Origin: Escherichia phage Rao1
Length of the DNA stretch: 44,051 bases
Sequence record: PQ221054
Reading direction: 5' to 3' (one strand)
Shown here: piece after piece, positions 26,969 through 27,579 of the stretch
How the letters are laid out: every line of letters begins with the position of its first letter
Numbering within the stretch: the first letter of the stretch is position 1
Notes under the pieces: generated by a model
Database searches by the model: none
The model's input: the letters and a program-made list of their open reading frames with translations, nothing else
What the model was told of the DNA's origin: nothing
Made by a program: the position numbers and the translations under genes

Positions 26969-27048
26969 GTCTCAGATTTTAGCCATCGTTTGGTTTTGGT
27001 CTATCGATTTTCGGTAGACCAAGCAGCACCATTGCCGCCATGCGCCTA

Positions 27049-27084
27049 AATATACCCAAAGATAGCTAGTTGTCTTTAGCAATT
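27049..27084 (-). promoter_or_regulatory. Conserved box copy P7 (minus strand AAATAGCACCAATTGCTAAA) with TATATT hexamer
   Basis: Minus-strand box, 22-bp spacer, TATATT; upstream of the Rha-family gene. Confidence 0.5.
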
Positions 27085-27218
27085 GGTGCTATTTATCGCC
27101 AATTCCACCATAAATCACAGTTACACGTAACCGATGTAACTCGATGTATACAATCTCATCCGCGGAAAATGATATACGCACTGTTACGCCAATTTACGCA
27201 TTAGTTACATTAAAATAT

Positions 27219-27263
27219 CTATATATATCAACCTTTTACTCTTATTATTATTATTATATATAT
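27219..27263. repeat. Simple-sequence block: (TA)5, (TAT)5, (AT)4
   Basis: Read directly; homologous in arrangement to the block at 143-233. Confidence 0.9.
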
Positions 27264-27579
27264 TACTGTGTATATCATGTAACTACTTCTATAGAGTGTT
27301 TCGGTTATAATTTTAATATAATGTGGATTTATACAGTATTGCGCGGCAGCTATACCAATGCACCCTCAGCGAGAAACGGCATACACGATATACACGATGT
27401 TTACATTGAGCTATGGCTGGCTTGAGATGCCAAAAAGCGTAACTAGTGCCAATGCCTACACGAAATTACAAAGATTCACGCGTAAACTTAAATCAACGAT
27501 TGGCAAAACCAATTGGACTGGTTACGGTGCTGAATATATAGTTACCTCATCGAAAGCAATCAACCAGAGAGATATATAA

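Follow-up and report, generated by a model that had tools for sequence, protein, structure and literature searches.

What role is played by the long gap between two divergent gene blocks in the middle of a T1-like phage genome? The stretch of DNA analyzed here, called the window, is the 44,051-bp sequence of Escherichia phage Rao1 (record PQ221054) and covers all or nearly all of the genome of a T1-like coliphage (Drexlerviridae, Braunvirinae-like); the gap, called region B, lies at 26969-27579. No replication origin has been found for T1-like phages (PMC7718038, PMC11447400). As developed below, the best explanation of the sequence data is that region B is cis-acting double-stranded DNA to which protein binds, not a gene or an RNA. 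We further propose that its core (27120-27290), together with a paralogous element at about 45-215 in region A (about 1-465), represents replication origins, or the two halves of one origin system, a proposal that we consider about evenly balanced between right and wrong.

Region B was first singled out in an earlier note, made from the letters alone, for its richness in GTAAC/GTTAC pentamers. The nine exact pentamers that it reported are present (27120, 27127, 27136, 27183, 27204, 27279, 27439, 27521 and 27541), the sixth having been placed at 27278. Dinucleotide shuffles of the region contained only 1.34 ± 1.12 of them, and not one in 5000 reached nine. The region 1-462 contains eight pentamers for 1.43 expected, a number reached by 2 of 5000 shuffles. 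A 611-bp segment with nine pentamers never occurred in 200 shuffles of the whole genome. In the actual sequence, the only bins with at least five pentamers per 500 bp are those starting at 1 and 27001. The nine had been treated as one class, which does not hold, as those at 27521 and 27541 fall in the spacer and the -10 element of an ordinary proximal promoter. Both short repeats that the note had quoted, CCAATTGG at 27509 and CACGATATACACGATG at 27384, were recovered. The core is organized as follows:

27120-27150: distal unit array (GTTAC 27120, GTAAC 27127, GTAAC 27136, GTATA 27146), three to four units with 9-10 bp spacing, reading leftward and near-invariant in 20 phages
27160-27165: CCGCGG palindrome, between two oppositely oriented arrays
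27174-27210, plus strand: inward array (ATACGC, GTTACGC, TTTACGC, GTTACAT), reading toward the AT-rich centre
27211-27266: AT-rich centre, 87.5% A+T, with TATATATAT at 27220-27228, (TAT)5 at 27243-27257 and TATATATAT at 27255-27263
27270-27283, minus strand: far-side units (GTATA 27270, GTAAC 27279), in the orientation opposite to the inward array

The inward array is phased at about 10 bp, with TACGC starting at 27175, 27185 and 27195 and TTACA starting at 27205, and the inverted pair TAGTTACAT / ATGTAACTA (pair I22) flanks the AT-rich centre. The (TAT)5 tract is thus as first described; a (TA)5 tract had been slightly overstated, the two TATATATAT runs being there and the exact 10-mer being absent.

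Region A follows the same plan, and the paralogy proposed with positions 1-450 is real: over 1-465 the two regions share 72% column identity, with the shared blocks in the same order. Its elements are:

45-215: core of region A, paralog of the region B core
57-124: left units, GTAAC 57, GTAGC 66 and GTAAG 76, then GTTAC 93, GTTAC 102, GCTAC 112 and CTTAC 124
135-196: AT-rich centre, 90% A+T, with (TAT)9 at 165-191
197 and 206: inverted units, GTAAG 197 and GTAAC 206

In both copies, the units face the AT-rich centre from both sides in opposite orientation, with a phasing of about 10 bp. The number of TAT repeats ranges from 7 to 9 among region A copies, and is 9 in region A of the window compared to 5 in region B. 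By nearest-neighbour calculation, the two copies are also the least stable 100-bp duplexes of the genome, at -100.4 kcal for region A (start 132) and -101.7 kcal for region B, against a genome mean of -134.3 kcal per 100 bp (standard deviation 6.4) and a next-lowest segment of -113. Two stability minima were found at the same two positions in Rtp, T1 and Klebsiella phage 1513 (Webervirus). In dozens of relatives from IMG/VR, the minimum (-100 to -106, z 4-5.7) falls in region A whenever the flank upstream of the helicase gene reaches that far.

The core is conserved well beyond its surroundings. Over 173 bp (27122-27294), it is 95-98% identical between phages whose recE, erf and 64-codon gene are only 78-93% identical, and it keeps 96% identity in Nouzillyvirus and 83% in Rogunavirinae, two groups in whose flanking genes no similarity could be detected at the DNA level. 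The arrangement of the motifs, on whose conservation the earlier note had made its view depend, is kept, the distal unit array being near-invariant in 20 phages. (TAT)5 occurs in region B of 16 of the 20 phages, which come from three subfamilies or genera, with a range of 4 to 6 repeats. The label of microsatellite therefore fails, as the near-invariant length of the TAT/TA tract across genera points to a constrained sequence and not to a slippage-driven polymorphism. A search of the core against 5,426 complete E. coli genomes gave zero matches, and we therefore rejected a host or prophage origin of the core.

The architecture is constant among relatives, and the repeated unit changes with the lineage. 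T1 has GTAAC-type units at both sites. Webervirus phage 1513 has GTAAGA/TCTTAC, its two copies being near reverse complements over about 90 bp, and the Tlsvirus-like phage Sazh (Tlsvirus) and Cronobacter phage SG01 have TGTTC/GAACA. Among the IMG/VR lineages, we observed GAAACA (locus L059), GAACA and TGGGAC (locus L071); the last carries ten TGGGAC copies in a layout clearer than that of region B, with two TGGGAC, an AT-rich centre and two GTCCCA. Two more distant loci, whose helicases are only 36-37% identical, have AAAAGGG five times, an AT-rich centre and CCCTTTT three times (L112), or TGTAAG/CTTACA around an (AAC)12 centre (L113). In both, the element is found immediately upstream of the helicase-primase operon, from which a single small open reading frame (ORF) separates it, and nowhere else in the 21-kb locus is the DNA less stable. 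Simple repeats occupy their centres, (AAC)12 at 9385-9425 of L113 and (AAT)3/(TAAG)4/(TA)5 at 9510-9550 of L112. The presence of other simple repeats in the centres of distant DUF3987 phages suggests that a simple-sequence tract is a recurrent feature and not the accident of one phage. Taken together, the change of unit from lineage to lineage within an unchanged architecture argues for a co-evolving protein of the phage rather than for a host factor.

On either side of the core, region B contains a promoter that reads outward. The leftward one includes a copy of the DR repeat; DR repeats (21-nt) have been described for TLS and T1, and the TLS paper leaves their role open (PMC11447400). The parts outside the core, together with the gene at the right boundary, are:

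27049-27092, minus strand: leftward promoter of the DR type, which is family-wide, with the -10-like TATATT (complement of 27049-27054), AAGACA (complement of 27071-27076) and, as part of it, the palindromic DR ATAGCACCAATTGCTAAA (complement of 27075-27092)
27296-27512: conserved non-coding blocks, about 200 bp with variable stretches between, including the ORF 27358-27579
27303: block GGTTATAAT
27381-27398: block ATACACGAT, twice
27408: block GAGCTATGGCT
27437: block GCGTAAC
27465-27479: blocks ATTAC/ATTCAC
27497-27516: block CGATTGGCAAAACCAATTGG
27513-27542, plus strand: proximal rightward sigma-70-like promoter of the recombination operon, TTGGAC / TGGACT, a 17-18 bp spacer and TATAGT
27580-27774, plus strand: 64-codon gene, the right boundary and first real gene, with third-position excess (phrog_5247)

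The proximal promoter ranks 32/250 in a weight matrix and is conserved in 11 of 13 phages, and its T1 counterpart, TTGACT-N16-TATAAT, lies in the same place. Region A has a corresponding promoter:

403-431, plus strand: proximal promoter of region A, TTGATT-N17-TATGAT, then GAGGAG and the ATG that starts the DUF7174 gene (rank 16/250)

DUF7174 is the product of the first gene to the right of region A (463-942 in the window; 539-1114 in locus L026). It was found only in about 129 T1-like records from E. coli and Shigella, all of which also have a GTAAC-type core. T1 gp77 gives a weak DUF7174 match, and also a weak resemblance to the anti-CRISPR AcrF2 family.

Several GenBank records annotate, inside region B, the start of a 115-143-codon protein that runs into the 64-codon gene. 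The long coding sequence (CDS) occurs in Rtp (rtp46), EC3a (gp44), BEK2, JulesPiccard, TR2 and PHROG 35664 (phrog_35664), at the following coordinates:

27376-27774 of the window: stretch of the long CDS
28260-28658 of locus L002: long CDS
2606-3037 of locus L001: long CDS

In pairwise comparisons, differences at the three codon positions were 0.184/0.196/0.160 upstream of the 64-codon gene, versus 0.154/0.119/0.324 inside it. In the five phages whose long frame is open, the values were 0.118/0.148/0.113 upstream versus 0.043/0.040/0.235 in the 64-codon gene. A TAA stands immediately before the ATG of this gene in four phages (that of the window, ZL19, TR3 and IME253), and in other relatives the upstream frame is shut by stops at variable places and broken by 1-2 bp indels. 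The N-terminal 50-80 codons of the long CDS overlap the conserved non-coding blocks, and only the last 64 codons evolve like a gene; the latter are annotated as a separate 195-nt CDS in ZL19, Rogue1, AN_ECEAS and TR3. The long hypothetical protein annotated across the region in several GenBank records is thus probably not a gene. The region had been described as gene-free, with coding in relatives named as what would speak against this; the codon positions, indels and stops agree with a non-coding region, despite the open 73-codon ORF at 27358-27579, which does not evolve like a gene.

RNA elements were also searched for. An Rfam scan of the whole window returned nothing in the region, its only match being the tRNA gene at 3118-3190 (RF00005, 59 bits); T1-like phages are known for carrying one tRNA. 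The RNAalifold consensus of the right half in 12 phages had 0 compensatory pairs and a covariation term of +0.92. Single-sequence RNA and DNA folds of the right half, the arrays and the AT-rich centre were no stabler than shuffles (z +0.74, -0.55, -0.48, +0.68 and -1.39). A leader RNA, a hairpin and a cruciform were rejected on these grounds, as neither covariation nor unusual stability was found.

Which phage protein could read the units? The most suitable candidate is a DUF3987 helicase, and a primase encoded elsewhere in the genome may act with it:

40851-42434, minus strand: DUF3987 AAA+ helicase, similar to minichromosome maintenance (MCM) proteins, candidate trans-acting partner (Pfam PF13148, E 1.4e-40)
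31540-32463, minus strand: DnaG-type primase with zinc ribbon, partner of the helicase (Pfam PF08273, E 6.4e-12); the T1 and Rtp homologs are annotated as primase

Kazlauskas et al. (PMC4889955) class DUF3987 proteins among the MCM-related replicative helicases of phages, which carry a winged helix at the C-terminus and usually occur together with a primase. An AlphaFold2 model built with 30 homologs had a predicted local distance difference test score (pLDDT) of 87.4 and a predicted template-modelling score (pTM) of 0.86, and places a winged helix at residues 451-521 (H-b-H-H-b-b) with a predicted recognition helix at 494-508, VMTRIKDHLVPMLDE. Foldseek gave MCM2-7, archaeal MCM and Orc1/Cdc6 as the best matches of the model, with probability 1.0. 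The winged helix is near-identical where the core is, 2 of 62 residues differing in ESCO41. The winged helix differs in lineages with other units, and its recognition helix varies (VMTRIKDH, VSKKIKER, VMKRIEEQ, VTTKVRDH); this apparent joint change of winged helix and unit across lineages is suggestive only.

Other proteins were considered and set aside. The earlier note had pointed to the helix-turn-helix (HTH) proteins of the window as binders of the pentamers, which is not supported: the winged helix of the DUF3987 helicase is the better candidate, and a different repeat, a palindromic one, is the more plausible match for the Cro-like HTH protein. Rha was rejected as core binder since it is absent from Rtp, which keeps the core, and the 64-codon gene product since it is absent from Nouzillyvirus, which keeps it too. 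DUF7174 was rejected because it shows 31-35% identity between phages whose region B core is 98% identical. The 664-aa protein annotated as 'ATP-dependent helicase' (33083-35077) hits the model of the RadD/YejH repair helicase with E 3e-53, which is below the curated cutoff. It is probably not the replicative helicase.

The origin proposal starts from what was observed, namely the anatomy, its conservation and duplication, the lineage-specific units and the presence of the helicase, and from the modelled fold of the latter. The winged helix of the helicase would read the arrays of GTTAC-type units. After assembling on both flanks, the helicase would open the centre, which at 87-90% A+T is the easiest-melting DNA of the genome, and the DnaG-type primase would then start synthesis. 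Since the core of region B lies between two outward-facing promoters (27049-27092 leftward, 27513-27542 rightward), transcription may help the opening. The core itself carries no strong sigma-70 consensus.

Several points weigh against this proposal. The units are short and partly degenerate (GTTAC, TTTAC, ATACG, GTATA), and to the right of the region B centre only one of them is an exact pentamer (GTAAC 27279). Copies A and B lie about 1.7 kb and 13.6 kb, respectively, from the helicase gene, unlike the arrangement in staphylococcal pathogenicity islands (SaPI). In both copies, and in Webervirus too, the element keeps its orientation with respect to the genes downstream, as a promoter would, and predicted promoters are annotated in the AT-rich centre of the relatives EC3a and AHP24. 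For the helicase, the Foldseek template-modelling scores (TM-scores) to MCM are low (about 0.33), its sequence gave no significant match to solved structures or helicases, and the pairing of winged helix and unit over 80 loci is too sparse to serve as a test and is confounded by phylogeny. The proposal also leaves the two-copy state unexplained. Two origins, as first suggested, give the best fit to the anatomy and the gene set; that the helicase binds the units, that the centre melts and that replication starts at either copy is what we infer.

The strongest competing explanation is the control of early transcription, with back-to-back host-polymerase promoters using UP-like DNA in the AT-rich centre, phased units that bind a phage activator or repressor, and replication starting elsewhere. 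We regard it as possible, with the balance tilted against it. It accounts well for the position of both copies at divergence points and for the conserved orientation mentioned above, which extends to Webervirus. The TAT/TA tracts also contain many -10-like hexamers (TTTACT-18-TATATT on the plus strand, several with AATAAT on the minus strand), and the promoters annotated at the core in EC3a and AHP24 would find a natural place. Moreover, the units in each arm read toward the outward promoter, like tandem activator sites, and the right half combines promoter-like conserved blocks with a good proximal promoter. Yet the promoter scores of the core are mediocre, the best candidate, TTTACT-18-TATATT, ranking only 84/250 in a simple weight matrix, and the -35 is unconserved in Rogunavirinae. 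The good, ordinary proximal promoters sit outside the ultraconserved core, 150-250 bp away, and 173 bp at 95-98% identity far exceeds the usual constraint on a promoter. The recE-side copy of Webervirus has on one side a terminator-like hairpin, which follows the primase gene, and on the other a separate DR promoter, and its neighbouring genes are co-directional, so the element is kept where divergent promoters are not needed. No conserved regulator with lineage-specific specificity was found, and Rha and the 64-codon gene are missing from some of the phages that carry the core. The literature searched contained no transcriptome of a T1-like phage. By analogy with the promoter-type origins of T7 and T4, control of transcription and an origin can be regarded as compatible.

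That the copies are recombination linkers at which modules are exchanged, or a packaging-related part of the pac region, seems improbable to us. The gene content beside the core is mosaic, with Rha on either side or absent and with variable KilA, HNH and DNA-binding cargo; region A is nearest to TR2 and CY1, region B to ZL19 and TR3, and the core adjoins recE-erf-ssb. The alternative of a module boundary, also raised in the earlier note, fits these data too, and yet a passive linker leaves the internal design, the phasing, the inward orientation and the lineage-changing unit unexplained. In support of pac, the T1 record has its coordinate 1, the start of an annotated repeat_region of 2800 bp and taken to be the pac end of the terminal repeat, about 100 bp to the left of its region A core. 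However, the TTGCA cluster at the T1 pac position (43925-44035), to which it is the better match, is outside the paralogy and missing from region B, and a second, mid-genome pac would give a second set of ends, which has not been reported for T1-like phages (PMC11447400). A pac role is unlikely for the module shared by A and B. A coding function, as the N-terminal part of a longer protein (rtp46, EC3a, BEK2, JulesPiccard), or a structured RNA or leader is very improbable. It is true that several relatives have an open in-frame ORF that extends over 114-297 nt upstream of the 64-codon gene, that phrog_35664 holds the long form and that the conserved blocks could in principle be RNA elements; but third-position excess is absent even in the five open-frame phages, the TAA before the ATG, the indels and the stops interrupt the frame, and the RNA searches described above point the other way. 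Hardly any credence is left for the view that the region is an AT-rich spacer in which simple repeats are unstable and the pentamers arose by chance. The region is indeed AT-rich with simple tracts, and the number of TAT units differs between A and B; the shuffle tests nevertheless exclude chance, the tract is near-invariant across genera and the two-copy design recurs family-wide.

The TTGCA/TGCAA repeats of the cluster at 43925-44035, in the left part of the region A gap, form periods of 30 and 17 bp in Tandem Repeats Finder. The cluster is itself a candidate pac, or recognition region of the small terminase.

Around region B, the window is 95% identical to phage ZL19 (26000-29500) and 85-89% identical to Guelphvirus, Veterinaerplatzvirus and Rtp-like phages, with the gene order of Rtp and T1. 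The left boundary, and the positions of the Rha gene in the loci compared, are:

26297-26968, minus strand: Rha-family gene, left boundary of region B (Pfam PF09669, E 1.9e-8)
1998-2627 of locus L014: Rha gene
1998-2627 of locus L015: Rha gene

Relatives use the second ATG (26944) as the start of Rha, the later start being implied by the 648-nt homologs in ZL19 and EC3a; Rha therefore probably begins at 26944, and the region B gap is if anything 24 bp longer. To the right of the 64-codon gene come a RecE-like exonuclease, Erf and then a gene for a protein similar to single-stranded DNA-binding protein (SSB), so that both flanks are as first described, a leftward Rha-family gene and rightward recombination genes. 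The SSB-like ORF (29508-29927) has a (CAG/CAA)n tract at 29837-29900, which encodes a poly-glutamine run near the C-terminus. Rha is to the left of the core and leftward here, Rogue1 and AHP24 have it to the right and rightward, and Rtp lacks it; other cargo adjoining the core (KilA, HNH and DNA-binding proteins) varies among phages as well. The closest relatives also differ by copy, region A being 99.8% identical to TR2 and CY1 and region B nearest to ZL19 and TR3. On these comparisons, the surroundings of the core are a mosaic hot spot, and both copies lie at module junctions.

The DR repeat of TLS and T1 (ATAGCACnnnTTGnTAAA) occurs 15 times in the genome for 0.53 expected:

Plus strand: DR copies at 1463, 2380, 4036, 10207, 13486, 28744, 31476, 32999, 35490, 37830 and 39040
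Minus strand: DR copies at 26283, 27075, 43084 and 43894

It is a palindrome, TAGCA-N5-TGCTA, and in the two copies examined (27075 and 32999) it lies about 21-22 bp upstream of a -10-like hexamer. This spacing would put its centre near -42, in the manner of a class II activator or operator site. A natural candidate for the DR binder is the Cro-like HTH protein (32504-32986). The copy at 31476 on the plus strand sits between two minus-strand genes.

Overall, these results narrow the search for the origin of the T1 family to two elements of about 170 bp and one named candidate initiator domain. T1 counts among the classic T phages, and contamination of laboratories and fermenters by T1-like phages is notorious. 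No description of the AT-centred duplicated element was found in the literature searched, which did not extend to the Rtp and T1 genome papers, so that an earlier mention is possible. If the proposal is true, it also provides sequence rules for locating origins in other DUF3987 phages. A bolder version, which we consider unlikely and offer by analogy with the DnaA-trio, concerns the central simple tract ((TAT)5-9 here, (AAT)3(ATT)4 in Webervirus, (AAC)12 and (TAAG)4 in distant phages). This tract could be a register element, which once melted would give a periodic single-strand track for the MCM-like helicase, the two copies cooperating as one bipartite origin. If this is true, an entire family of virulent phages would follow a new origin grammar.

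We finally compared the element with known systems. The DR repeats belong to the same phage family and are likewise unexplained and intergenic, one copy being inside region B (27075-27092). In contrast to the AT-centred module, of which they are not part, they are promoter-associated, genome-wide and conserved across genera. The iteron origins of lambda and theta plasmids, as well as oriC, share with the element repeated initiator sites, helical phasing and an AT-rich unwinding element. However, the units here are of 5-7 bp and not 17-22 bp, and the element is not within or beside an initiator gene. Neither region contains a DnaA box (TTWTNCACA), and a single match to TTATNCACA with one mismatch compares with 0.84 per kb genome-wide; with DnaA boxes absent and units of 5-7 bp, a DnaA-dependent or lambda-type origin was rejected. 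A perfect match to the consensus of integration host factor (IHF) at 27226 was also dismissed, as the genome total of 4 against 3.2 expected corresponds to chance.

The origins of T7 (phi1.1A/B and an AT-rich stretch) and T4 (oriF, oriG) are of the promoter type. They too belong to virulent coliphages without a classical initiator, and combine an AT-rich unwinding stretch with nearby promoters and more than one origin per genome. However, they lack flanking iteron arrays, whereas here phased lineage-specific units are conserved and the promoter consensus is weak. The satellite phage P4 has two separated cis elements, ori and crr, with short octamer iterons TGTTCACC in both orientations, and its alpha protein unites the primase, helicase and origin-binding domains. 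The annotation of the T1 primase gives a similarity to P4-type alpha proteins, and the Tlsvirus-like relatives use a TGTTC(A) unit; in contrast to P4, primase and helicase are separate genes in the phage of the window.

The closest parallel is with SaPI and other phage-inducible chromosomal islands (PICI). SaPI origins consist of 6-12 penta- or hexanucleotide iterons and an AT-rich centre, with at least two iterons per side in opposite directions (Qiao et al., PMC9371898), and it is the C-terminal winged helix of a self-loading helicase that reads the iterons (PMC9371898). The present system differs in that it belongs to a virulent Gram-negative siphophage and not to a satellite, has two copies per genome, neither of them directly downstream of the helicase gene as the SaPI ori is of rep, and uses a DUF3987 (MCM-like) helicase, with a conserved trinucleotide tract in the AT-rich centre and a binding of the units that is so far inferential. 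The likeness lies in the short lineage-specific repeats (nine exact and further degenerate units in region B; eight exact in region A with GTAGC, GCTAC, GTAAG and CTTAC), the AT-rich centre with iterons on both sides, at least two opposed units per side, and an AAA+ helicase with a C-terminal winged helix that is encoded on the same element, the primase being separate or fused. If the proposal is true, the iteron/winged-helix self-loading mechanism of staphylococcal satellites would also serve a large family of enterobacterial phages that are virulent and have an MCM-like helicase.

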